Below are positions 5,808 through 64,000 of a stretch of 64,000 nt of DNA, in pieces. The DNA lies in NCBI GenBank assembly GCA_965112155.1, contig OZ218108.1; one strand, 5' to 3'. The notes below the pieces were generated by a model, which worked only from the letters and a program-made list of their open reading frames with translations, was not told where the DNA came from and searched no databases. The DNA comes from Podarcis liolepis. Taxonomy: Eukaryota. Position 1 is the stretch's first letter, and each line of letters begins with the position of its first letter. Position numbers and translations under genes: made by a program.

Positions 5808-8476
5808 TTTTTTTTTTTTTTTTATAAAATTTTTTATTGCGTTCCTTTTCATAGGTTCACAAATTAGTTTACATAGCAACATACAAGAAACATTTTTTTT
5901 TTATATATAAAGAAAAATAAAAAAAGAAAAAAAAAATTGAATATGTTACACATCATGTTTCATAAATTTACTTTCTTTTGGACCTCCCCACATCTTCCCA
6001 ACATTGCATTCATTGTTCTAACCTGATCAGCAATTTGTTACCTTGTTTCACAACTTATTGTATCTTTGACTTTATTATGTTACCAATTTCGAAAGTTTGT
6101 AGTTTACTTTTGGTACCTTCACAATAAACATAATATATTGTTTCAAATTTGTTTCCTTTTCTTTTTTATCTACGCTTATTTTATCCTTTGCTTAAATAGG
6201 TTGCGGAAGCGTGACGTTTCCTAATCATGCACAATCTTAACATTCAAACAACTTATAATATTTTTGCAAATAATCCTTGAATTTTTTCCAGTCCTCCTCT
6301 ATTGTTTCTTCGGTCAGATCTCGAATTCTGCCAGTCATTTCTGCCAGCTCCATGTAGTCCAACAACTGTGTCTGCCAGTCCTCCAGTGTGGGTAAATCTG
6401 GTGTCTTCCAGTACTTTGCGATAAGAATCCTTGCTGCTGTTGTCGCATACATAAACAGAGTTCTGTCCTTCTTTGGCACCTTCCGGTCCACCATGCCCAG
6501 CAGAAAGGCCTCTGGTTTCTTAAGAAAGGTATATTTAAATACCTTTTTCAACTCATTGTATATCATTTCCCAGAAGGCCTTTACTTTCGGGCAGGTCCAC
6601 CAGAGGTGAAAGAATGTCCCTTCTTCCTCCTTACATTTCCAACACTTATTATCAGACAGGTGGTATATTTTAGCCAACTTGACTGGGGTCATGTACCACC
6701 GGTATACCATTTTCATAATGTTCTCTTTCAAGGCACTACATGCCGTGAATTTCATACCGGTGTTCCATAACCTTTCCCAGTCCTCAGACATAATGTTATG
6801 TCCTACATCCTGTGCCCATTTTATCATAGCCGATTTAACTGTCTCATCCTGTGTATTCCATTTAAGCAGCAAGTTATACATTCTCGAAAGTACCTTAGTT
6901 TTGGGTTCTAATAACTCCGTCTCTAGTTTCGATTTCTCCACCTGGAAACCAACTTTTTTATCCATTTTGAAAACCTCTTGCATTTGAGCATAATGTAGCC
7001 AGTCTCGCACCTTATTTTTTAATTTGTCTTGGCTTTGGAGCTTCCAGTTGTCTCCAACTCTTTCAATTAATTCCCAATATTTTGGCCAGTAGGCCTCCAT
7101 ATTGGGCCTTTTTTTGGAAACTTTGGCTTCCACTGGTGATAACCACCTCGGGGTTTTACTTTCTAGTAAATCCTTGTACTTCATCCATACAGCAAATATT
7201 GATTTTCTGACAATATGGTTTTTGAACAATTTATGAACCTTTGCCTTGTCATACCACAAGTATGCATGCCAACCATAAACATTGTCAAACCCTTCCAGGT
7301 CTAGGACATCAGTGTTTTCCAACAAGAACCAATCCTTCAACCAGCAGAAGGCTGCAGCTTCATAGTACAACCTTAAATCCGGCAGGGCAAACCCCCCTCT
7401 TTCTTTTGAGTCAGTTAGTATTTTAAATTTTATTCGGGGCTTTTTGCCCTGCCAGACAAACTTAGATATATCCTTCTGCCACTTTCCAAAACATTCCATT
7501 CTGTCCACGACCTGTAGGGTTTGAAATAAAAATAACATTTTTGGCAAAACACACATCTTTATAGCTGCGATTCGGCCTGACAAGGTAAGTTTCAATCTTG
7601 CCCATATATCCAAATCCTTTTTGATTTCCAACCAGCATTTTTCATAATTATCTTTAAATAAATTTAAATTTTTGGTGGACAAAAATACCCCCAGGTACTT
7701 CACTTTTTTCACCACACTTAACTCTGTTTCTTTCTGATACCCCTCTGTCTCTGTAGGTGTCAGATTTTTAACCAAAACCTTGGTTTTTTGTTTATTAAGC
7801 TTGAATCCCGCCACCCGACCAAACTCCGAGATAAGTTCAAGAACTTTTTTTGTGCTAGATTCTGGCTCCTGTAATGTCAAGACTAGGTCATCTGCGAAAG
7901 CTTTCAGTTTGTATTGTTTCGCTCCGACCACTATACCCTGCACCAACCGGTCCTCTCTGATCATATTCAGCAATACCTCCAGGACAGAAATAAATAACAG
8001 AGGAGACAGGGGGCACCCCTGTCGTGTCCCTTTTTCAATTTTGAGTTCCTCCGACACCACATTGTTCACTATCAGTTTGGCTTTTTGTTCTGAGTAGATT
8101 GCTTCTACTCCATTTTCAAACCCCCTTCCCACTCCCATCCCTTTCAGGTTTTTCTTCATAAACCTCCAAGAAATGTTGTCAAATGCTTTCTCCGCATCAA
8201 TAAAAATTAATGCGGCCCTTGTGTTCCTAATTCTCAAAAGCTCCAATATGTCAATAATGTTCCTGGTATTGTCCGACATATGTCTGCTAGGGAGAAAACC
8301 TGCTTGGTCCTTATGAATTACTTCATTTAATACTTTTTTAAATCTATTTGCTAAAATGTCTGCAAATATTTTGTAATCCACATTCAGGAGTGAGATGGGA
8401 CGATAGTTCTTAAGCTGGGTCTTTTCCATTTCCGACTTTGGAATCAATGTGATGAATGCTTCTTTCCACGTTTCCG
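5808..8476 (-). mobile_element. 5'-truncated L1-clade LINE with poly(A) tail and TSD
   Basis: TSD TGCACCTAGAAAATTTTG(T) at 5790-5808 and 8477-8495, poly-T at 5808-5823, minus-strand AATAAA at 5833-5838, 3'UTR of about 410 bp, uninterrupted ORF2 remnant. Confidence 0.95.
6237..8476 (-). CDS. L1 ORF2p remnant (RT plus C-terminal CCHC; endonuclease lost by truncation), about 746 codons without stops
   Basis: Motifs NYRPISLLNVDYKI, IDAEKAFD, GTRQGCPLSPLLF, FADD, YLG and CWKC-x8-H-x4-C. The first ~98 aa of the listed 844-aa ORF come from flanking DNA. Confidence 0.92.
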
Positions 8477-9591
8477 TGCACCTAGAAAATTTTGTCTCTT
8501 TGCCGTGATCCACAAGTACATTTACCCAAGATGTGTAAAAGCAACTGAAGGGCAGAACTGTCTGTTTTTCTCCTTGGAACATTAACATGTTTAAGAATCT
8601 AGCTTTCAAACACACAATTGTCCTGACAGTGAATTTTACTGAAGTCTCAAATGCAAATAAATAGTTTGAAACAAAGGTTGTATAAATATCCGCCTGTGCC
8701 AGCAGTTCAGTTTGAAAGAGAACGCTGTAAACATGAAGTAAATTAAAAGGGGATCTGCTTTTGTGGAGCACTTGGAGGAGTTATTACAGAGAAAACGTAT
8801 GCTGTGTGGTGCAACAGCACGTACCCATGTGGCTAACCCACAACTGGTCAAAGAAACAAGTCCTGCCCGTACCTAGGACTTCTGCCACAGCCAGACCACA
8901 ATTCCTGAGAGGGATAAGCTTAATTGGCTGAAAATAAACCCCAGGCCCTGTTGCAGCTCATTAACTGGTCACAGACATGTTGCAAGGGAGGGAAAGTGGG
9001 ATCTGTTGGACGAAGCTACTTCTCTGTGCACTGCAAATGAAACAGACTATTGGTTTTGTTGATAAAGGAACATTGTTTGGCTTGTGCCAACTAAGTAATG
9101 GGAGTCAGTGGCATTTTTGGCCAAATATAGCCCTCCCAGATTACTCCAAAAAACCCAAGCTTTTAACTCAGGAGCTGAAACCATTGAAAAGAAGGAGGGG
9201 AGTTTACATTCCGGCAGTCTCCTGTAGCAAAGCCAAATGAATGTTTGGCTTAAGTTGCATCTCTGTCACGAGCCTCTCTCAAGCCAGAAAATGTCGTTTC
9301 TATAATCAAAGAATTGAATGCAGTTTACTACTACTGTGAGGGGCATCATAAGGTCACTGCAGTGGGCATGGGAGCAGCAAGCCAGTAAATGCATAGCTGT
9401 TGCTGAATACAGACACTGCATCCTTCAGAGACATGCTGAATAATTATTATCTGGGTACCCTCTTCTTTCTTCTTTTATTGAAAATGAATATAGCCACCCT
9501 TCCATATATATATTATATATAGCACCCCCACCCCCAATCAATAAAAATCCCTGGGACAGCTGAAGAGCAATTCAAATTACAATGTATGATA

Positions 9592-15796: not shown

Positions 15797-17710
15797 CACT
15801 GGGCAACAATTTCTTACTTTTTGAATGTTGTCTAGATTTCTACAACTGATTTGGGGTATTTTTGCACTGCTGAATCAGGAAATGGCATCCGTTTCTCTCC
15901 ATCAGGTCAGGTTTTCTGTAAACTGAATGGTGGGCATTGATAAAGGTAAGTACATGTAAATTGCATGTTGCTTCACCATTTTTCAAACTTCAGGGCTTGA
16001 ACTTCTGTTTCTTGGCACTCCTGGAATGCTCAGCAGCACGGAGGTCTCTCTTCAGAGTCCAACAGTAGTCAGCCATCATGACTGCGTCCCAGTGACCCTG
16101 ATACCTGGTCTCCATCTCTTTCATGCCCTGATGGAATCTCTCCCCCTGCTCGTCACTCATTGAACCCAGGTTCTCAGGAAACCGGTCCATATGTGAAAAT
16201 AGGTAGTGCATCTTGACGCTCATGTTGCAGCCCAGGTTTCTGAAAGCAGTCAGCATGTTGTTGACAAGTTCCGCGTAGTTTCTGGCCTTATTGTTGCCAA
16301 GAAAGTTCTTCACTACCAGAACAAATGCCTTCCACGCTTCCAGTTCCACTTCGTTCATTGAGTTTCCGAACTCTGGATCTCTGATGAGCTGACGGATCTG
16401 AGGACCGTCAAAGATGCCAGCTTTCAACTTCTCCATGGTCAATCCTGGAAAAGCCTGGCACAAGTAAATGAAGCTGTCACCATCCTTGTCCAGAACCTTG
16501 GTGAACTGCTTGATTAAGCTGAGCTTGATGTGCAGTGGTGGGAAGAGTATTCTGTCTCTGTTCACCAGAGGGTCATTGATGACGTTCCTTTCTTTGCAAG
16601 GCACCAATTCCTCCCACACAGGCCAGTCCTTCTTCATGTAATGTTGAGCACGGTCCCTACTATCCCACATGCACTGAAAACATGGGTACTTGGTGAAGCC
16701 AGACTGTTGTCCCAACAAAAAGTTCACCATCTTCAGGTCAACACAAATAAACCACTTATGCTGATCATAACCAATTTTCTCCAGCACATACTTCACCGCT
16801 TCATAGTTCTCCTTCAGTGTACTCGAGTGAGCCAGGGGTATAGAGGCAAACTGGTTGCCGTTGTGTAGCAGAACACATTTCAGTGATCACTTGCTGCTGT
16901 CAATGAACAGTCTCCAATCTTTGGGTTCGTACTGGGGCACTCCAAGCTTGAGCAGAAGCTGCGCAATATCTGCACAGTACACCAAGTTCTTCTCTTCCAA
17001 GAAAAAACGGAGGTACTCTTGATGCCTGTTGCGCAAGAAGCTGATGCGAGCACTGTCAGAGAGGAGGTTTTTTTCTTCAATCTGGATGCCAACAGTTCAG
17101 CAGAGTCCTTTGACAAGCTGAGGTTGCGAACTAGATCATTCAACTCCTTTTGGGAAATTGGATGTGGAGCATCATCTTCAAGAACCACTTCTTCTTCTTC
17201 ATGTCCTTCAACACTGGAGGCATCTTCGTCACTAATGTCAGGAAGTTATCCGAAGATAGGCACTGGAATTTCATCACAATGAGCTACAGGACAACGTGCT
17301 GATTGAAGATCAGGATACTTCGTGGGGCGGCTGCCCCATTAACTTGGTTTTCATCCACCAACTTTATGCTTTGCTGGACCAATTTATGGAAGATTTCGAG
17401 GTTTTATGACTTCAAACTGATCCCTTTTCGACATAATCACCCAGAACTATCGGACCTGAATACTTCTTGTCATTAAAATAATCATTTCCAATCAAAACAA
17501 TTATTTGACAAGGCATTTTACCCCCACCAACTTCTTCTAAAATGCTCCACACAAGTGTACATGTGAACAAAAACCTAAAAAAGACATGTGGCCATAGCTC
17601 AAAAACTTGACCTGATTGAGCAAAACCAATGTGATTTTTGGATTCAGCACATCAGATTCATCCTAAATCAGCTGAAAAAATGCAGACAACAAATTTGTTG
17701 TTGACCAGTG
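15797..17710 (-). mobile_element. Chapaev3-type (CMC superfamily) DNA transposon, 1914 bp, internally deleted
   Basis: Termini CACTGGGCAACAA / TTGTTGACCAGTG, imperfect subterminal inverted blocks (CTGATTT, TGCTGAATC, ATCAGGTCA), 3-bp TSD ATA at 15794-15796 and 17711-17713, and transposase motifs. Confidence 0.88.
15990..17320 (-). pseudogene. Chapaev3 DDE transposase pseudogene
   Basis: Motifs YPDLQSARCPVAH, ELNDLVRNLSLSK, WRLFIDSS, ICVDLK, GFTKYPCFQCMWDSR, PPLHIKL, GIFDGPQIR, MSVKMHYLFSH, SDEQGERFHQ. Stops at 17246-17248 and 16887-16889, frameshift in the T-run 17068-17074. No N-terminal Cys/His domain is visible. Confidence 0.85.
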
Positions 17711-27141: not shown

Positions 27142-27313
27142 NNNNNNNNNNNNNNNNNNNNNNNNNNNNNNNNNNNNNNNNNNNNNNNNNNNNNNNNNNN
27201 NNNNNNNNNNNNNNNNNNNNNNNNNNNNNNNNNNNNNNNNNNNNNNNNNNNNNNNNNNNNNNNNNNNNNNNNNNNNNNNNNNNNNNNNNNNNNNNNNNNN
27301 NNNNNNNNNNNNN
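27142..27313. other. Assembly gap (172 N)
   Basis: Run of N. Confidence 1.
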
Positions 27314-51518: not shown

Positions 51519-52599
51519 CTGTGGTCAAAAAGAAAAGAAAAGGTGATGACAAGACCTTCCATTAATGTGCAATGAACATTATATAGTTTAGAAATACGTG
51601 GTGTTGGGGTGGGGGCAGATCCCATGTTTCATGCCTCATTCCCCAGTAGCACTGTTGGAGGCAGTATGTCTCTGAATACTAAGTGCTGGGATGCACAAGT
51701 GCTATAGTGTGCGTATACTGCTTGTGCGCTTCCTACAGACATCTGGCTAGCCATTGTGAGAAGAGCATGCTGGACTTAAAAGGGTCTTTGCTCTGATCCA
51801 GGAGGGTTCTTCTTAATGTCATTATAGCATATGTATTTTTTTACTACTTGTTACTTTGTTACTTACTTTTTAACTGGCATGGAGGGAGGAGAGGTGCTTG
51901 TGGGATTTTAGTTGATTAATTTATGTTGTCTTGGGAGCCAAAATAACTTGATAGGTCTTCATTACCATGCAGCTTAACTTCTTTGTGACTGGCGGGAGGC
52001 GGGGAGCATCTTCTGCTCCACCCCAGGTACCAAAATGCCTTGGGCCATCTCCGTTCAAAGGGCATTCCCAAGCAGAGGAGGAGGAGTTGTCTCAGAAAGA
52101 AGGCATCCTGACATCCCCCCACTTTCTGAAGGGCAGGGGCAAATGTTTGAGCCCTGGAGATCTTTTTTGTTTTCCAACCTTATACCCCACCTCATGTTCA
52201 AAAGAATCTCAAAGCAGCTTTTACAATACAAGACATAACACCCAAATAAAATGTATAAAACACGCCATGTTTCATTGCAAAAATGAAAACGTGTGGGAAT
52301 GAGATCTTCTACTCTTCTAAAGCAACATGCCCTGAACTGGCCCCCTCCATTAAGTTTCGAACTACAACTCCCAGCACTGGGGCTGTTGAGAGCCCAAGAC
52401 ACCAGGTTGGGGTAGACTTTCCTACAAACCTGGCCACATTCCTGAAAAAATGATTTTGTTTAAGAACACACCTGAAACACAGAGAAGATGATAGATAGTC
52501 CTAACCATCTCTTTTACACGTGTGTATGAAATGACTCCCTATAGATCCCCAAACCTCCTGCCGAACAGAATCAACCCAGAGCACCCAGGAAATTATCTC

Positions 52600-53270
52600 C
52601 TTGTTGGCAGATTCCCCCGCCTTTCGGACGTGGTATTTTTTCATACCCCCGAAATCCTTGTTGCAGTTGGAAGAGGAGGATCTGATCTCTGCACCGTGGA
52701 GCGTCTGAGCTACTAACCGGCAGCCAAGCATCAAATCGTTTTGCAGCAGGAGGAAAATGAAGAGGGGCGGCGGGGTAGCACGTCAATAAGGTCCGAATAG
52801 AGCGTTGGAAAAGTATGAAGCGCTCTCCTCGCTCCCCACCCCCGCACCCCCGTTGGTCGGTCCCAGTTTCGGGCCAGCCGCGTGGCTTGGGTCGCACCAA
52901 AAAAAGACTGGAGGGGGGGTGGACGAGGAGAGTCTGGGCATCCGGCAGACTGGACGCTCCTGGGTGCTGCCTGGCCCATCGGCCCTTTGGGCTCCTCACG
53001 GGCGATATCCAGGAGCAGGAGGCGGCATGGCGGCAGCCGGCATGAGACGGACGGAAAAGGAAGTCTTCCGGCGTAGCCGCAGTGGGGATCGCAGCCCGGT
53101 CCCGAAGCGCCTCGTCGCCGCCTGCGCGGTTTTTCTGGAGGGCGCGTGGCGGGGGATGGAGGCGGTGAGCGGATTGCAGGCGTCGGGCTGTGCGACCTCG
53201 TTGGCCCCTTCGAGGATCTCTCTCTTTCCTTCTTTCTGAACCTTCCCTGAGACCTGCGTAGGAAGGCAGA
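52600..53270. promoter_or_regulatory. CpG island in the MEF2C 5'UTR intron (candidate alternative or bidirectional promoter)
   Basis: Sharp rise in GC and CpG without TIR, TSD or SINE hallmarks; GC box GGGGCGG and CRE-like CACGTCA at about 52764-52785. Confidence 0.72.
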
Positions 53271-54456
53271 AGAAGCAAGGGAGTCCTGACACATACCACC
53301 AGCTCCCACTTGGCATGAGAGGACTCAGTCAGCCTCCTTTTTATATAATGTATTTGTTTTAGTGTTTAACTTGCAAGCCACCTTGGGTTTCCTAACAGAA
53401 AGGCAGTATATAAATCCAGTCAATAAATACACTTTGAGGCCACAGCTTGACCCTCTTGGCTTTTCAAAACCTTGAGGTCCTTCTCCGTGAAGCCTCGCTG
53501 TGCTCCCTACCCCCTTGGCAAGGACAGTGACAGTGGCCCTCTTTTTTCTCCTCTGGAAAGTACATAAAGCTGAAGAAGCAAAGTTGGAAGAGGGATACTG
53601 TGGCTGTACACACACCTCTGTTCGCCCAGCTCAAGCACACTCCCGCTTCTGGTTCGGGGAGAGGTGTGCGCATGATGTTTGCCAGAACTATTTTGCAATT
53701 TCTTACGAAATGCCACATTTCGACGCTTCCTCTGTCACCCCTTCCAAAACAAGTTTCGATCCGAATTGAGAAAAAGAACAGTCTAGCTGCATTTTAAATG
53801 TGTGCACAGTCTAGTTCTCACTTCCTCTTTCAGCTGTATGGGCTTTTCAAAGCTCAGATTAGCTCTTCTAAACCCTCTATTGATCCCTTGGAGAAGGAAA
53901 GTTTGTGCGCTCATTTTTTCTGTTGAATGAGGGTGGGTTGATAAGAGGGAGTGACGGGTGACAAGACGTGGGGGGTGTCCATGGCACTCACACAAAAAAT
54001 TCAAATGTGTTCTTGGGCCTAAAAAGGTTGGTGACCCCTAACAAAGAGTTTTTGCATGCCAGAGCATTCAAGAGACCACATGAAAATGCCCACAACTCCC
54101 CCACAGTAGGTTTTGTGTATTGTGTGTACAACTGCATCAGAATGTAGAAGGAATAGGTTAACCCGCAATCCTTTCTAGCAGCCTCCATTGTGGAGGAGGT
54201 AAAGTGTGAAAAGAACAAGCAAGCTGAACACAAGTCTGCAATGTAAAAGAAAAAATCAGGGCTGCAATTGTGGGCTTGTTGTTTATCTGTGACTAAGGTC
54301 CATGGACCATAGTAGGAATTGCTTCCAAGTAAACAACCCAAGACTCGAACTGGCTTAGACTCGATACAGTTAACAGGGTTCTGATACAGACTATCAACAC
54401 TTTGTTATTGCGTACAGCAATACAATGAATGTCTCCCCCATGAATTTTGTAAGTTA

Positions 54457-56389: not shown

Positions 56390-56915
56390 GTGAGTGTTTC
56401 ATATTTTAATTCCCTGCCTCCTGCAAGATCATTCAATATTACAAAAAGCTCTATTTATTGCTTCCTTTTTTGGATTTAGGGCTCAAGCTAAACTCTGCAG
56501 TTGTGTGTACTAAAAGGTATACGGATGACAAAGCTTCTCCCTAATCACTACTTATTGTACATTATATCGTTTTAGCCATGGCATGCCACGGTATTTAATA
56601 TACATGTGTCACCCTTTCAGCTCCTACCTTTGAAAATATATTTTACAATTAATTCATTCCACAAGAAATTATATACATTTTCATTCTCCCCTATGGATTG
56701 TGAAATATTTAAATTACCCTCCTGGAATCTACATCCTATTATAACGAGATTTTGGGAATTTATATGTTATGGGCAATTATAAAAGCAATATGGATTGAAA
56801 GAATATTCTGAATGATTGGAGAACAAATACAGTATTGTTGAATAAAATCTTGTGGGGTAGATCAATCTATAGCCTTGGTTCCTCTCAGGGTGGGTTGCTG
56901 TGGCAACCGCCCCAG

Positions 56916-56917
<2 letters not shown>

Positions 56918-56960
<43 letters not shown>
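56918..56960. repeat. (TA)n microsatellite
   Basis: Directly visible. Confidence 0.97.
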
Positions 56961-56962
<2 letters not shown>

Positions 56963-59900
56963 CCCTAAAGCTTGTTTCAAGAGCTGTACCCAGCATGGGC
57001 CAAGCTTAAAAGCAGACAGATGTAGAAAGAAGTGCTTTCGTGAACTACTCTTTCAAGACAGGCCTGTGGTAGAGAGGAGCATAGGAAGACATGGGGTGGG
57101 GCTGAACTATGAACAGAAATTGGAACCCAAGTCACCCAGGGTTAGGATGTATAAACTCTGGGGTATTCAAATGTGACTCTGGCACTCTGTAATTTAATTG
57201 TCGCTTTTGCAATGTAAATTGGCAGCGCTGTTTCTTTTGAAGAAATAAACATTTGACTATCACTCCAAATTGAAGAAGGGGGGGGGACTCGGATAATTAC
57301 TGAAAGGGGATGTTAACTGAGCTCACCATGAAATAATCATACTTGTAAAGGAAAGAGACACTTGGCTGCACCTCAGCCCGTGGTAAGGGTATGGAAGGGT
57401 TGATTACTCCAATAATTACACCTCCTGTTGTGCATTTTTCCCCCTGTGTGTTTTGTTTAATTCAGATGTAAGTTTCAGGTGGAAGGCTGGGAAATGGTGC
57501 AAGATTTTCTGTTTCCTGTTGCCAGCAGGCCTAGGCCTAACAGGAACCCTTAATCTTACCTTCCTGGAAGAAATCCAACGGGGATTTGCTGCCAATTATT
57601 GGCTGTTTGTAACACATGTTTTTAAAATAATGGTCTGGAGGTGATGGTGTTTCAGTGTAAATTATATTGAATGCTAAATGACACAGGAAGATTCTTCAGG
57701 TGCTGTAAGAACTATTTTTATTTGAAGTCTAAAAATATTCTCTACTGAGTTTCAAGAATGAAGGAAACAATTTGACTTCTATACTGCTTGTCTATGAAGT
57801 ACTGAAACACTTTTTTTTTTTAAAGGGGGAGGTGTCTTCTTCATTGCTTTGGGCATCTTTGCTCTGACTGAAAAATAATGTTGGCACAAACCACTGAGTA
57901 TCAGTCCCCAGGATAAGGTCACATCTATTTAAAAACTGGGCCCTAATAACCTAAATATGTAGACGATGCACAGGACATATGAAGCCACTGCATATATTTC
58001 TTTCAGTGGTGTCATTCTCTGATTTCGGGCTATTGAGCCAAAGTAGTGCTGACCTTTGCCCTGTCAAGCTGAGAGCCTTGCCTTTGAGACATTTCAACAC
58101 TTTGCGGCAGCTTCCCCCCAAAGAAATGCAAGAAATTATAGAATTTTGCTCACTACACTTGGGTTGGCTTCATATAATTCCCCTTCCCCTTATTTCACCC
58201 TCTCCCAAGTGATTTTGTGTTGTGTGTTTAGCAACATCCCAAGATGACAGACACTGTTGAGTTTTGTCAACCCTTGTCCAAGAGACAACCATCTTGGTGC
58301 ATATAATTTCCTGCATTTTTTTCAATGCCCCCAGCTTTGCTTTGAATAATTTCAGACCAGTTTGGGCTATGTGAACATACAGTTCCTGGGTGACCATAGG
58401 TAAGGATTTTGCAATGTATTTCTTTCTCTGTCTAAACAGCAGCTGATAGCCTGTAGGTTGAATTCTGATCACCCTATTCTTGTGCGCAAAAAATAGACAC
58501 TTTGAACAAGCAATAGCTTCTCTAGTCCTACATCTACTATCAAGATATCTATGAGATCCAGTTCCTAAATCCCATCTCAGAGCCACTACCAGACTGTTTC
58601 TATTCTGTGGATAAGAATTCAGTTGCAGATCTGCAAATTCACTTTGCGAAATGAAAGTGGATTTAGCCTTCTTGCACAGCAAATCCACTTCCCCCCCAAA
58701 TTGGACATTTTCAGTAAGGAAAATGACTGGAAAGTATGAGAAAACAATATTTTGATACAAAGTTGTACAGACCCCCCACAAACAAATCAGGATGAGTGTG
58801 CAACAAACAGCCAACATTGTACAACCTCCCCACAAACTTTGTGAAGAGAAATCGGGATGAATGCTCAGTAGGTCACCTGGAAGCAAGTTTTGTCCTACTG
58901 AGCACTCTACTGCCCTTCTAGCACATGCTAGAAATCTGAAATGACGAAGAAATTGTGGGGACCATAGATCTTTGTTTATAGTCAGATTCATTACTGAACT
59001 CTATATGAAGTCAAGTTATGGTAGGCTCATAGGTCTCTGTTTCTCTATGTGCATGACTTCTTTCCTTGGGGCAAGCTGGCTTCAAGGGTCAGGTGGTGCT
59101 GCAAGTGATGAAAGAGAAGTTTTCTCTCCATGGAAGAGCCCAGCCTCTGCCTCCATTCATGCCTTGCTTGTCTCCTTGAAGACAACCAGGGTGTGAAGGG
59201 GCAGATGGGCCTGTGAGAGTGAAGGAAGGAGTGCCCTCTCTCCTAGTGCAGGCTGGTGACTCTGAAAAGAATTGAGCCATACCCCATGACCATGCAGCCG
59301 CTCCCCCCGCAAGCAATGGGTAAAAGCAATGTTTCTCTCATTTCTAATTTCTCCAGTCTTAAATTCATTGTTGTTGTTGCTTTGAAGAATGAAGTCCTCA
59401 TGAAAATTCATAAGCATTTCACTATAAATATCTCCTAATATACACATTTTTAATACAATTTCCCCTTATGAAAACATTTTTGCAAAAAAAGCTTTCCTGT
59501 AATGTAATACAATTTTTAATGCTATTTTCACTAATATGTGGATGTTTATTTACAAAGCTGGTGCATCATGGTCCTTGATCCAATTTATGGGGCTGTGAGG
59601 TTAGACAACATTATGTGTTCCCTTCTTCTTCTGTGACTTTGAACAGCCAGGTATCTTGAAAGGAATTCTTGGTGTTACTGTAATTCAAGACATATCCTAC
59701 AAAAAGTTACATGATCTACCTTAAAGCCCGTAGTCCAGATCCAAAGGGACCACCTAAACCTGAAAGCTGAGGAGAAAACGATGTGCACATTTCATCAAAC
59801 CTTTAAGCACTTTCAAGCTCCGTTGCTTTCAAAAGGAGAGATTAACTCTCCCATTGAAATCAACGCAGGTTAGCAGAAGTTTCTCCATGCATTTGAACTT

Positions 59901-60158
59901 TTTGATGGCTGCAACAGCAAGTAGTTATTTCTATATGTGAAACAGCCATCACAAATCAAACACCATCTCACACCATGTCAAGCCCAATGATTTTCAAGTG
60001 AGGCAGCTCACCACAATCTGTGGTAAGTCACTGTGTGATGCATTATTGAGTGGTGGGCATTCATACATGCATGTGTCAGGAATGTGGCTGCATAGTGACG
60101 AAGTGATATACAGTCAACGAGCAATTTGCACAGGGGTTCCATTCTTGGACCCCATGTG

Positions 60159-60755
60159 TGTTAGTGGAGAACGTATAAGCACACCCCACCCCATTCTGCT
60201 CTGCTCCTGTTCCGCCCTTTCAGTGACGTGTTTTCTGACATTTTCAGTCATTTCTGGGTTTGGTGCTGTGCACACATGTGCTTTCATGCATCTTTTGGAT
60301 ACATCTTAAGCGGCCGTTGCCAGTATTGTGAACTTCCTCTAGAGCTTGGTCCCAATAATAGGTATACATCGAATCTTGAAACCACAGAGGAGTTATAGCG
60401 TATCTAAGAGAGTTTGTACTGGTCCAGTAAACACTTCCGCTGCGCCACCAGCAACAGCTCTCTTTGCAGAGTATTAATTAAGTCCAGTGCAGAGATTCTT
60501 GTTGCAGTACAAGCTTCAGAGTCTCAGCAGCAAAGAAATAACGACACAGGGAAGCCTGTCTTTCCAAAGACAGGTTTATTGCAGAAAGATAACAGAAACA
60601 CCTCCGGAGCTTTCGGACATTTTGCTTCACGCCCCACAGGCAGAGAAAACAAACACTCTTTATATACTGAGCAACTTAACAACTTAACGAGCTTGACTAC
60701 TTAAAGTCACATGACATTGCTAACTTGCCAGCGTCTTAGGTTTCACACCCTAACA
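60159..60755 (-). repeat. 3' LTR of the copia element
   Basis: Starts TGTTAG immediately after the PPT GAGAGGGGG (60756-60764); TATATAAA at 60659-60666; AATAAA at 60575-60580. The end at 60159 gives a 6-bp terminal inverted repeat TGTTAG/CTAACA; the alternative end at 60500 gives TGTT/AACA. Confidence 0.72.
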
Positions 60756-60786
60756 CCCCCTCTCGCTGGCAATACAAAAAACAAAA

Positions 60787-63700
60787 TTACTTCAGACCCA
60801 TTTCTTCACAAAAGTTTTCATGCCGCTGAAACCCAAGCGGTTTTGTAAAACCATCAGCTTGATTTTCATGACTGGGACAGTAATTTAATTTAACAATTCC
60901 TGCTTTTACCGTTTGACAAACATTTTGAAAGCGGATATCCAAATGTTTTGTACGACCTTTAAACTGCCCATTTTGTGCTAACTTAAGACACGGTTGATTA
61001 TCACCCCATACAGTGATTGGAGTGATGGCCTTTTCATACATCTCTTGTGCCAAGCATTTGTAAAATTCTAGATCTCTACATAACTCAGATAAGGCACAGA
61101 ACTCAGCTTCTGTTGACGACAAAGCAATCAGGTTTTGTTTCTTGGATCTCCACCCAATCAGAGAGTTACCAAATTTTATTACACAGCCAGACACTGATTT
61201 TCTATCCTTTAAATTTGCCCAATCACTATCTGCCCAACAAGTAATCTGTGCTTGTCCTTCTGAAGACAATTCAAGGCAAAAATCTTTGGTGTATTGTAAA
61301 TATCTTAACACTCTTTGAATTCCTTTCCATGCATTTACACTAGGTTTCGAAGATTCTCTGCTGAGTAAGTTAACAGCGTAAGCAATATCTGGTCTACTCC
61401 ATTGCGAAAGATGAAGTAGGCTTCCCAGTGCTGACTGAAAGATTTCAGCACGCTTGAATTCAGCACTATCCTTGAACTCATTGCCTTTTACAAAACCCAT
61501 TTCCATTGGTGTTCTAACACCTGCACACTCCGTCATGTTAAACTTTTTCAACATTTGCAATATCTTGCCTTTTTGATTCAGTAGAAAACTGCCATTTTTG
61601 GTCCTATCTATCTGAACACCAAGATAGACCTTCACATCACCAAGATTCTTAACTTTGAAGTGTTTATTTAACTCTTTGGCTAGTTTTTTTACTTGTTCTT
61701 GTGTCTTTGAAGTATAAATCAGGTCATCTACATAAACAAGCAAAGATTCTTGAGCATCTCCTGAACCTCTGAAATATAAGCAATTGTCAGCCTTGCTCCT
61801 GCTAAAACCAATGCCTACCAAAACGTCATTCAAACACTCATTCCAATTATGAGCGGATTGCTTGAGTCCATAAATAGATTTATGTAGTTTCCATACCTGA
61901 TTTGATTTACCAACTTTCAATCCTGGCGGTAGCTCCATATAGAGCTCTTCAGCCAAGTCTGAATGAAGATAAGCTGTAGAGACATCAAATTGATTCACTT
62001 TGAACCCTTTCTGAGCAGCAACTGCTAATAGTGCCCGTAGGGTTTCACTCCTTGAAGTGGGTGCATAGACTTCAGAATAATGTAACCCCTTTCTTTGCGT
62101 AAAACCTCGAGCTACAAGCCTTGCTTTGTACTCTGGTTTCCCCATCGCTGTTGTCTTTATCCTGTACACCCACCTACAACTTACAGCCTTGGTACCTTCT
62201 GGCAGTTTGGTGATGGAAAACACACCCAGTTCTTTCATAGAATTCAACTCCTTTTGCATGGCCTCACGCCACCTACTGGCCTCCTCCTGGGGTAATTGCT
62301 CAACCTCCTCAAAACTTTCAGGTTCGCAATTTGCCAAACCAGCCCAAACACTAATAGCTTGGTACCTTTCAGGAGGTTTACCTTTGTTGGCACGCTTGGA
62401 ACGCCTTAACAGTTCCTGCGATGTTCCTTCAGTTTCCCCCTCTGACCCAGAATCACTAGTCGTCACCTGTTTGTCACTAGTGGTTGTAGAACTTTCTGAT
62501 TCTGACTTTACACGTCTCTCTTGCTGTACAGGTGAACTTTTATAGCTAGAAGATTCTGACTTTACAGACGTGGGTGAACTAGGCGATTTCTCACCCTTGT
62601 CCTCAGACTCAAATTCCTCAGTCTGTTCTGGAACTAATACCTGCCCTGGGGCCTGAGTTTCATTGTTACTGTTCACCACATCAAATAGTATGTCAGGATT
62701 CCCATGAATTTTATTCCAACCATCCTGTTCACAAAATTCTGCACTTCTGCTGATTGTGATTTTCGTTTGATTGCCTTCTACATTCACAAATCTCCAACCT
62801 TTTGTGTTTGCTTGATAACCACAGAAAAACATTTCTTTAGACCTAGGATCGCCTTTCCTACGTTGTGCCCTAGGCACCAGCACATAAGCACGACATCCAA
62901 AAACTCTTAGATGATCAATTTTTGGTTTTTTCCCAAATAGCATGAAGTAAGGAGTGTTGCCTACTGTGCTATTGTACACTCTGTTAAAAGTATAATTCGC
63001 ATACAGTGCAGCCTCAGCCCAAAAACGCTGTGGAAGTCCAGAATCAAACAGCAAAGCAGCAATGGCTTCCTGTAATGTTCGAAATTTTCTTTCAGCAACT
63101 GCATTCTCCTGTGGTGAATAGGGATTGGTAAGTCTATGAACTATACCTTTCCTTTTTAACCACGTCTCCAGCGTGTGGTTCACAAATTCCCCACCACGAT
63201 CTGATTGTATTTTACGTACCCTGGTGTCAAATTTACATTCGACTTCTTCAATCCAATCCATCAGGATGGAAGCTGCTTGTGATTTTTCTTTCAGAAAGAA
63301 AACCCAACTAGCCCTTGAAAAATCATCCACCAAAATTTGCATAAATCTCGCACCTCCAAGCGATTTGACTGGCATAGGGCCACACACGTCTGTGTGCACA
63401 AGTTCAAAGGGTTTCTTGCTTACTCTATCAGATCTAGGATAGTTACATGTCTTAACCTTAGCATGTTTACAAGCACAACAATCCAGAAAATTTGGACAGG
63501 GTTTAATGTTACACTCCTCAGCTAAATCTGGCATCTTGCTTACATACTTAAAGCATATATGAGCTAACCTTCTGTGTAGTAGATGTGCACAACCTGTATG
63601 AGGAGCCTTATTTACACACTTAGCTTGCGCTTCACCTGTTGAACATCTACCTGCTGCTAACTGCTCTTCATCCAAAACAAAAAGCCCATCCTCACAGGGA

Positions 63701-63999
63701 ATTTTAACTAGCTCCTTCCCCTGTTTCGAAATGGTGCACACATCATTTTCAAACTCAACCTTAAAACCACTTTTTACCAGGCATGACACACTCAAAAGTC
63801 CATTCTTCATTCCTGGAAGAACAAAAACAGGAAGGTTGGTTTGCAAACAGTTAACAAAAATTGTGCCTTTAAGGTTCATTTCTCGTTTACTATTGTCTGC
63901 TATAGTCACGGTTTTTGCAACTGGCAATGTCTTGCAGTTCATCAAGCGGCCACTAGATGTCGCTGGAACTAAACTGTGACTTGCTCCACTGTCAATTAT
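60787..63999 (-). CDS. Copia Pol polyprotein (protease, integrase, RT, RNase H), open to the window edge
   Basis: The frame continues upstream of the listed ORF as IIDSGASH (protease DSG at 63985-63993). Then HRRLAH...CCAC zinc finger, VHTDVCGP / SDRGGEF / ENAVAER DDE triad, YKARLVARG, FDVSTAYL, YGLKQS, YVDDL, ADSDWA, TEAE, GDNQ, ADGFTK. No stops in 1070 codons. Confidence 0.96.
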   Translation of the reverse strand: MIDSGASHSLVPATSSGRLMNCKTLPVAKTVTIADNSKREMNLKGTIFVNCLQTNLPVFVLPGMKNGLLSVSCLVKSGFKVEFENDVCTISKQGKELVKIPCEDGLFVLDEEQLAAGRCSTGEAQAKCVNKAPHTGCAHLLHRRLAHICFKYVSKMPDLAEECNIKPCPNFLDCCACKHAKVKTCNYPRSDRVSKKPFELVHTDVCGPMPVKSLGGARFMQILVDDFSRASWVFFLKEKSQAASILMDWIEEVECKFDTRVRKIQSDRGGEFVNHTLETWLKRKGIVHRLTNPYSPQENAVAERKFRTLQEAIAALLFDSGLPQRFWAEAALYANYTFNRVYNSTVGNTPYFMLFGKKPKIDHLRVFGCRAYVLVPRAQRRKGDPRSKEMFFCGYQANTKGWRFVNVEGNQTKITISRSAEFCEQDGWNKIHGNPDILFDVVNSNNETQAPGQVLVPEQTEEFESEDKGEKSPSSPTSVKSESSSYKSSPVQQERRVKSESESSTTTSDKQVTTSDSGSEGETEGTSQELLRRSKRANKGKPPERYQAISVWAGLANCEPESFEEVEQLPQEEASRWREAMQKELNSMKELGVFSITKLPEGTKAVSCRWVYRIKTTAMGKPEYKARLVARGFTQRKGLHYSEVYAPTSRSETLRALLAVAAQKGFKVNQFDVSTAYLHSDLAEELYMELPPGLKVGKSNQVWKLHKSIYGLKQSAHNWNECLNDVLVGIGFSRSKADNCLYFRGSGDAQESLLVYVDDLIYTSKTQEQVKKLAKELNKHFKVKNLGDVKVYLGVQIDRTKNGSFLLNQKGKILQMLKKFNMTECAGVRTPMEMGFVKGNEFKDSAEFKRAEIFQSALGSLLHLSQWSRPDIAYAVNLLSRESSKPSVNAWKGIQRVLRYLQYTKDFCLELSSEGQAQITCWADSDWANLKDRKSVSGCVIKFGNSLIGWRSKKQNLIALSSTEAEFCALSELCRDLEFYKCLAQEMYEKAITPITVWGDNQPCLKLAQNGQFKGRTKHLDIRFQNVCQTVKAGIVKLNYCPSHENQADGFTKPLGFQRHENFCEEMGLK

Positions 64000-64000
64000 C

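Follow-up and report, generated by a model that had tools for sequence, protein, structure and literature searches.

A young Ty1/copia retrotransposon beside MEF2C in Podarcis liolepis combines a short primer-binding site with a copy of its probable tRNA primer in the long terminal repeats

We analysed a 64,000-nucleotide stretch of the genome of Podarcis liolepis (GenBank assembly GCA_965112155.1, contig OZ218108.1), here called the window, which corresponds to C12:31,620,001-31,684,000 of the 1.57-Gb genome and ends inside a retrotransposon lying next to the gene MEF2C. Followed into the neighbouring stretch (locus L001; positions above 64,000 are numbered on from the window), this is an intact and recently inserted Ty1/copia element, referred to below as the focal element (Table 1). 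An original prediction, made from the letters of the window, had reported at least 1070 uninterrupted codons with all catalytic motifs, a polypurine tract and a CpG-retaining long terminal repeat (LTR), and had taken the element to be intact. All of this holds: the in-window frame of 1,070 codons (60787-63999, minus strand), still open at the window end, belongs to a single gag-pol open reading frame (ORF) of 1,386 amino acids that runs without a break from 64947 to 60787; the polypurine tract lies directly against the 3' LTR; and the CpG observed/expected ratio is 0.49 in the LTR versus 0.27 in the host sequence around it in the window. In the in-window frame Pfam recognises protease, integrase, SH3 and RVT_2, arranged as in copia, and the complete frame encodes a copia Gag followed by protease, integrase, reverse transcriptase (RT) and RNase H, the order expected of Pseudoviridae, with every catalytic motif present. 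The parts beyond the window, namely gag, the primer-binding site and the 5' LTR, are all found in the neighbouring stretch, and the two LTRs are identical at 351 of 351 positions. The remaining structural features of a Ty1/copia element are likewise in place: an LTR pair around an internal region, a length of 5,111 bp that falls within the range of 4 to over 9 kb, and a primer site for the initiator tRNA-Met (tRNA-iMet) behind the 5' LTR along with the polypurine tract ahead of the 3' LTR. The element's boundary had been misplaced, at 60159 or 60500 with target duplications ATGTG or ATTCT, because the LTR extends 95 bases beyond a TG...CA-looking end at 60500; the true flanking duplication is GATAC on the minus strand. 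Also overlooked were the two features with which we are mainly concerned, a short primer site and a copy of tRNA sequence in the unique 5' region (U5) of the LTR.

The focal element belongs to a family that has spread recently, as had been suspected: LTRs are identical, copies are many and the ratio of nonsynonymous to synonymous differences (pN/pS) is about 0.2 among open copies. The exact 24-base LTR start occurs 238 times in the genome and 104 junctions between a 5' LTR and the primer site were counted, so the family has at least 104 copies and few solo LTRs. We fetched 20 of the 41 best LTR matches, a sample picked for likeness that leans young. Two LTRs are present at 15 of these loci, with eight identical pairs, five pairs with one difference, one with two and one tandem array, which puts 14 of the 15 within 0-2 bases in this sample picked for likeness; the full 1,386-residue frame is kept in 10 of the 15. 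Nine other open frames give pN/pS values of 0.16-0.30 against the focal copy, which reads as the mark of a replicating family. A 5-bp target duplication flanks 13 of the 15 two-LTR loci and all three solo LTRs, the two exceptions being L012, where the LTRs are identical and the target duplication does not match, and L014 (C1:20.189-20.200 Mb), where tandem elements have adjoining LTRs. As a side observation, 28 of the 100 focal junctions listed lie on C20, whose 40.1 Mb make up 2.5% of the assembly; this enrichment of about 11-fold is as expected of a W chromosome. C20 also carries many older sister copies, and C10 has none among the junctions listed.

The insertion is polymorphic, as had also been suspected. 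Among contigs of sequencing runs compared over window positions 59800-60900, one from run X3, a different organism, departs from the flank at 60404 and resumes to the right of the element, giving an empty site with a single copy of the target duplication. A contig of run X5, a different sample with the species label of X1, departs at 60403 and continues for about 1.4 kb, from which we infer an empty site. In X1 the filled junction is covered at a depth of 23.6 and the flank at 40.9, a difference suggestive of heterozygosity; the assembly may derive from X1. The focal family is present at high depth in all three of these DNA runs (X1, X3 and X5). In a search of sequencing runs, no RNA run was among the holders listed. 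In the RNA run X23, from another organism and about 12% read, four reads matched the LTR and none the flank.

The first unusual feature is the primer-binding site. It abuts the LTR and, measured against a host tRNA-iMet reference taken from locus L022, pairs only with tRNA bases 32-39 in the anticodon arm, an inner segment as in the Hemivirus type and not the 3' end; self-priming and priming from the tRNA 3' end were considered and ruled out by this pairing. A match of 8-9 bases is found at 17 of 17 focal junctions and at 20 of 20 sister loci, the latter selected on protein likeness alone. The usual match in this genome is 14 bases long (246 sites; 20 loci fetched of 100 listed form our long-site sample) and stops just short of tRNA position 26, a methylated base. 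C1-C5 carry 38 focal junctions and six TA-type 14-base sites, and the two sets do not overlap. At L052 (L024; C3:113,763,570), in a related family, the primer site is the complement of tRNA-iMet bases 1-39 in full, and primer read-through also marks L021 and L051, so that the imprints span tRNA bases 1-39 or 16-39. These imprints argue that the primer is the 5' half of the tRNA, and we consider priming by a 39-base half of initiator tRNA-Met very probable. Two side observations concern these sites. A 4-base duplication directly follows the 8-base site at 5 of 17 focal junctions (L004, L006, L009, L010 and L018), which suggests slippage at the second strand transfer. L039 and L041 have half-tRNA sites of 14-15 bases and a common leader, with no copia frame match within 6.8 kb; an 870-codon frame of a different kind lies near L039.

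The second feature is a block in U5 that repeats sequence of the probable primer. It lies sixteen bases before the focal LTR end, has the same sense as tRNA bases 7-32 and presumably spans the box A region of the tRNA. The focal copy matches 26 of 32 positions over tRNA bases 1-32, and most other copies of the family match 18 of 18 over bases 7-24. Across the related lineages the block covers tRNA bases ~1-32, and its last position corresponds to base 29-32 of the tRNA, at the start of the primer site. The spacing between block and LTR end is 16 to 53 bases. We compared each locus with 300 approximate dinucleotide shuffles, using four focal loci, 13 of 20 sister loci and 13 of 20 long-site loci (seven near-duplicates were dropped from each 20). 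Sense copies were significant (p<0.05) at 16 of the 17 short-site loci and at 2 of the 13 long-site loci, and at none of the four loci of the two intact long-site families (p 0.39-0.94). In U5, an antisense box against tRNA bases 1-17 also reached significance (p<0.05) at 7 of 14 short-site loci and at none of the 13 long-site loci; wherever box and sense copy are both present, the box lies upstream. The same layout of U5 block plus primer site was sought in metagenome contigs, where 26 matches were found; 0 of 26 lay near a copia frame, and we take them as chance.

In a quick RT tree of 43 rows, with support from the Shimodaira-Hasegawa-like approximate likelihood ratio test (SH-aLRT), 16 short-site rows and a Podarcis protein form one group of five lineages (SH-aLRT 99), four of which carry the U5 copy. 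The lizard families and one further protein group together within a set of nematode and arthropod copia elements. The Podarcis lilfordi copia protein has relatives up to 97% alike in the genome, and the protein collection holds one near-identical protein, with the next relatives at 64-68%. The lineages of the clade are far diverged at synonymous sites: four-fold sites compared between the focal lineage and its sisters agree at 31-37% (26-28% expected at random), a divergence that would leave about 50% of neutral ancestral sequence, and those among sister lineages are 42-50% alike, leaving 61-69%. The U5 blocks nonetheless retain 23-27 of 32 tRNA bases, gaps allowed. Near-random four-fold sites beside a retained block argue that the copy is probably either under constraint or refreshed from the primer. 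LTR ends vary within the clade (TA, AA, GA and CA), and in L085-L104 non-canonical AA and GA ends occur beside CA in young families. In L094, L095, L097, L100 and L103 we also observed an additional poly(A) hexamer, which follows the tRNA copy and lies ~20 bases ahead of the LTR end.

What might such a copy do? Being of the same sense as the primer, the block cannot bind it as RNA; only its DNA complement can. Our preferred though tentative explanation is that the U5 copy folds the nascent minus strand onto its own primer, releasing and trimming it. The starting point is an element with full copia anatomy that has recently spread as a family, and whose primer site pairs with tRNA bases 32-39. 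Such a site is short, and the leader boxes, together with the upstream U5 boxes of sister families, would offset this by pairing with the rest of the tRNA half. After the first 16-53 bases of minus strand, RT would reach the U5 block, and the product would complement primer bases ~1-32 and could form an RNA:DNA hairpin with the tethered primer. For the duplex of primer bases 1-31 with the anti-U5 strand, the predicted energy is -38 to -55 kcal/mol versus about -28 for shuffles. The hairpin would detach the primer from the boxes of the leader and of U5 in the succession in which RT encounters them. RNase H would then remove the paired part and leave about 8 primer bases, from which plus-strand synthesis would regenerate the 8-9-base site only; families lacking a U5 copy regenerate 14, sometimes 24-39, primer bases. 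The main argument for fold-back is how well the limits of the copy, of the short site and of the regenerated bases fit together. A bolder possibility is self-encoded primer editing, in which RNase H would cut the captured primer to about 8 bases and the end of the plus-strand strong-stop DNA might be set by sequence and not by a modified tRNA base.

A number of observations weigh against fold-back. L101, an old copy with stops, has a short site and no sense copy (p=0.63), and conversely L039 (p=0.020) and L055 (p=0.003), which have no copia frame inside the fetched stretch, show weak sense matches at long sites. In focal copies the antisense box falls short of significance (p=0.21-0.24). The energies of the primer:anti-U5 duplex were obtained by applying RNA parameters to an RNA:DNA hybrid. 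Short site and copy arose once, so that the link between them is a single evolutionary event; the RT tree is a quick version calculated without bootstrap; and every element studied comes from one genome. The substitution classes (6 versus 3, with 9 transversions) do not favour fold-back over a plus-strand or RNA hairpin. Fold-back intermediates are deduced from sequence, and RNA folds predicted for the focal family also pair the U5 copy with the leader.

This last point leads to a second explanation, in which the copy acts as RNA: a stem of U5 and leader would close around the primer site and have to be opened by the tRNA, forming a switch with translation or packaging on one side and priming on the other, and with the likeness to tRNA as a by-product. 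U5 pairs with the leader in the predicted folds of L001, L003, L093 and L095, the U5:leader duplex reaches -35 versus -23 for shuffles in L002 and L013, and a change at tRNA base 30 that recurs in nearly all blocks faces a matching leader base in several families, as judged by eye. However, L095, L097, L100 and L103 keep the copy without excess U5:leader pairing, such excess is also seen in some long-site loci without a copy, and the focal block fits the tRNA (18/18) better than pairing with the leader needs. An RNA stem would also leave unexplained why just 8-9 primer bases are regenerated, and we regard it as rather unlikely.

The copy might instead have no function, having arisen when a growing strand on one occasion used its own primer as template and being refreshed by occasional template switching onto the primer. 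Read-through of the primer does deposit tRNA sequence (L021, L051 and L052), refreshing predicts an equal likeness to the tRNA, and L101 does without a copy. We nevertheless think this explanation doubtful, as the block is kept in four lineages despite far-diverged synonymous sites, 16 to 53 bases from the LTR end, and its boundary falls on that of the short primer site. Highly improbable is a role as part of an RNA polymerase III promoter (box A) in the manner of Helenus, for although LTRs are described that contain tRNA-derived segments with both box A and box B (PMC10886601), neither the LTR nor the leader matches the 3' half of the tRNA at box B, box A bases are altered in L086, L094 and L095, ARAGORN detects no tRNA in L001, and the focal LTR carries a TATA-like box and a poly(A) signal, with a 4.2-kb ORF that needs polymerase II.

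Self-encoded primer editing, if real, would be a new mode of primer handling during reverse transcription. To our knowledge, primer release and the stop of second-strand synthesis are poorly worked out in half-tRNA-primed elements. The genome of P. liolepis offers a natural contrast, between young 14-base families in which read-through up to base 39 is occasional and a young clade with 8-9-base sites and a U5 copy. With its short site and TA/AA ends, this clade may be missed or misdescribed by standard LTR annotation, which relies on a 12-base primer match and TG...CA ends.

As for the host gene, a MADS exon at C12:31,762,813 is that of MEF2C (67/67 match); this match excludes the other MEF2 paralogs, and three other MADS exons differ. 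MEF2C lies on the plus strand with its ATG exon at C12:31,743,418, so the element on the minus strand is antisense to its neighbour, as predicted. The claim that the 3' LTR faces the CpG island stands in part: it points towards 57 kb and the island at 52.5-53.5 kb of the window, whereas the larger island lies on the opposite side. Candidate splice donors between these features mark possible upstream non-coding exons of MEF2C, on which a literature search yielded no usable account. The insertion might affect MEF2C, either through antisense RNA started in its 3' LTR or through interference with promoter use. Such an effect would suit its antisense orientation 2.7 kb from the large island, its polymorphism and two acceptor-like sites on the host strand within the element, and a corn-snake copia element disrupts OCA2 and CLCN2 through cryptic exons (PMC4657000, PMC11948899). 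We nonetheless judge such an effect improbable: the proposed placement in a 5'UTR intron, inside the MEF2C pre-mRNA, depends on candidate upstream exons, the coding exons begin 58 kb away so that exon capture would be confined to the 5' untranslated region, and the host strand of the element contains no AATAAA. The polymorphic site is a usable marker beside MEF2C and a candidate regulatory allele. Elsewhere in the window, we noted by eye an 847-codon frame resembling the RT of a long interspersed nuclear element (about 6200-8780, minus strand) and a 298-codon transposase-like frame (16000-16886, minus strand), as well as a run of 172 N at 27142-27313.

Table 1. Features of the focal element and its surroundings, in window numbering continued beyond 64,000
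Feature	Position	Strand	Remarks
Host CpG island	52501..53501		Single-copy, promoter-like in appearance; large MEF2C island about 15 kb to the right
Candidate splice donors (56390, 57383, 57468)	56390..57473	plus	Pattern scan only
Target-site duplication, left copy	60400..60404		GATAC on minus strand
Whole Ty1/copia element	60405-65515	minus	5,111 bp; in-window part 60405..64000
3' LTR	60405..60755	minus	351 bp, TG...TA ends
U5 block, 3' LTR	60421..60448	minus	Same sense as tRNA-iMet bases 7-32
Poly(A) hexamer	near 60580		Within 3' LTR
TATA-like box	near 60666		Within 3' LTR
Polypurine tract	60756..60767	minus	Abuts 3' LTR
gag-pol ORF, in-window part	60787..64000	minus	ORF start 64947
RNase H	61233-60858	minus	
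RT	61734	minus	
Integrase, HHCC and DDE	63585-63105	minus	
Protease	63993	minus	
Gag CCHC knuckle	64215		Outside window
Leader box	about 65135-65150		Predicted pairing with tRNA D-loop region or U5 copy
Primer-binding site	65157-65164		8 bases, against tRNA-iMet bases 32-39
5' LTR	65165-65515		Its tRNA copy at 65181-65208
Target-site duplication, right copy	65516-65520		Outside window
Large MEF2C CpG island	about 68201-70801		2.7 kb past 5' LTR, nearest MEF2C coding exons

The element had been thought surprising in such an amniote. Copia is nevertheless published and common in squamates, hence not new there: a survey records it for 23 of 24 squamates and counts 1,004 copies, forming 44 clusters, in Podarcis muralis, with Mtanga as the sole clade found among lepidosaurs (PMC11889832). 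The focal family agrees with squamate Mtanga elements in host group, abundance and youth and may be one of the published clusters; that classification rests on RT and RNase H, and the term 'PBS' is absent from the main text of the paper (PMC11889832). An active corn-snake copia element sits in introns of OCA2 and CLCN2 (PMC4657000, PMC11948899) and, like the focal element, is young, intact, polymorphic and in or near a gene (antisense in OCA2). It differs in being 5,832 bp long with TG...CA ends and a site for the tRNA 3' end, judged by eye from the supplement. Given these precedents (PMC11889832, PMC4657000, PMC11948899), an intact young copia element near a lizard gene is ordinary. As a separate observation, the PMC4657000 supplement suggests that the ordinary tRNA-iMet 3' end is used in the corn snake, so that both modes of priming apparently occur in squamate copia.

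The closest parallels for the primer site are Drosophila copia and yeast Ty5 (Hemivirus), in which an anticodon-arm site ending at base 39 likewise abuts the LTR (PMC8515867, PMC5371799, PMC6317226), and which share with the focal element a single gag-pol frame and a 5-bp target duplication. The focal family departs from that type in its 8-9-base match (14 in the genome's other families), its TA end and its U5 tRNA copy. For the copy itself, the nearest likeness is to Helenus/TRIMp3 elements, whose LTRs also contain tRNA-derived sequence and whose fungal members prime on the anticodon arm; they are short and non-autonomous and carry boxes A and B (PMC10886601), whereas the focal element is autonomous, is 5.1 kb long with a 1,386-residue ORF, and lacks box B. 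Membership of that group is contradicted by the presence of proteins, the lack of a box B match and a box A that varies among lineages. Unlike in Helenus, moreover, the tRNA copied in the focal LTR is the primer itself, and the copy ends where the primer site starts. HIV-1 U3-R is said to hold a tRNA-Lys3-like sequence linked to strand transfer, complementary to the primer in RNA. Several Repbase LTRs are reported, with no detail given, to resemble part of a tRNA (PMC10886601), and a curator may already have seen LTRs of this sort. A literature search for a U5 primer-copy layout, largely outside subscription journals, led to Helenus-type elements and to no description of such a layout. Ty1 and Ty3 come close in combining, like the focal clade, a short primer site with additional tRNA-related boxes; their boxes are complementary to the primer in RNA, whereas the focal block has the same sense (PMC5371799). 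The focal element is of a known kind, with what is likely a new variant of primer handling.

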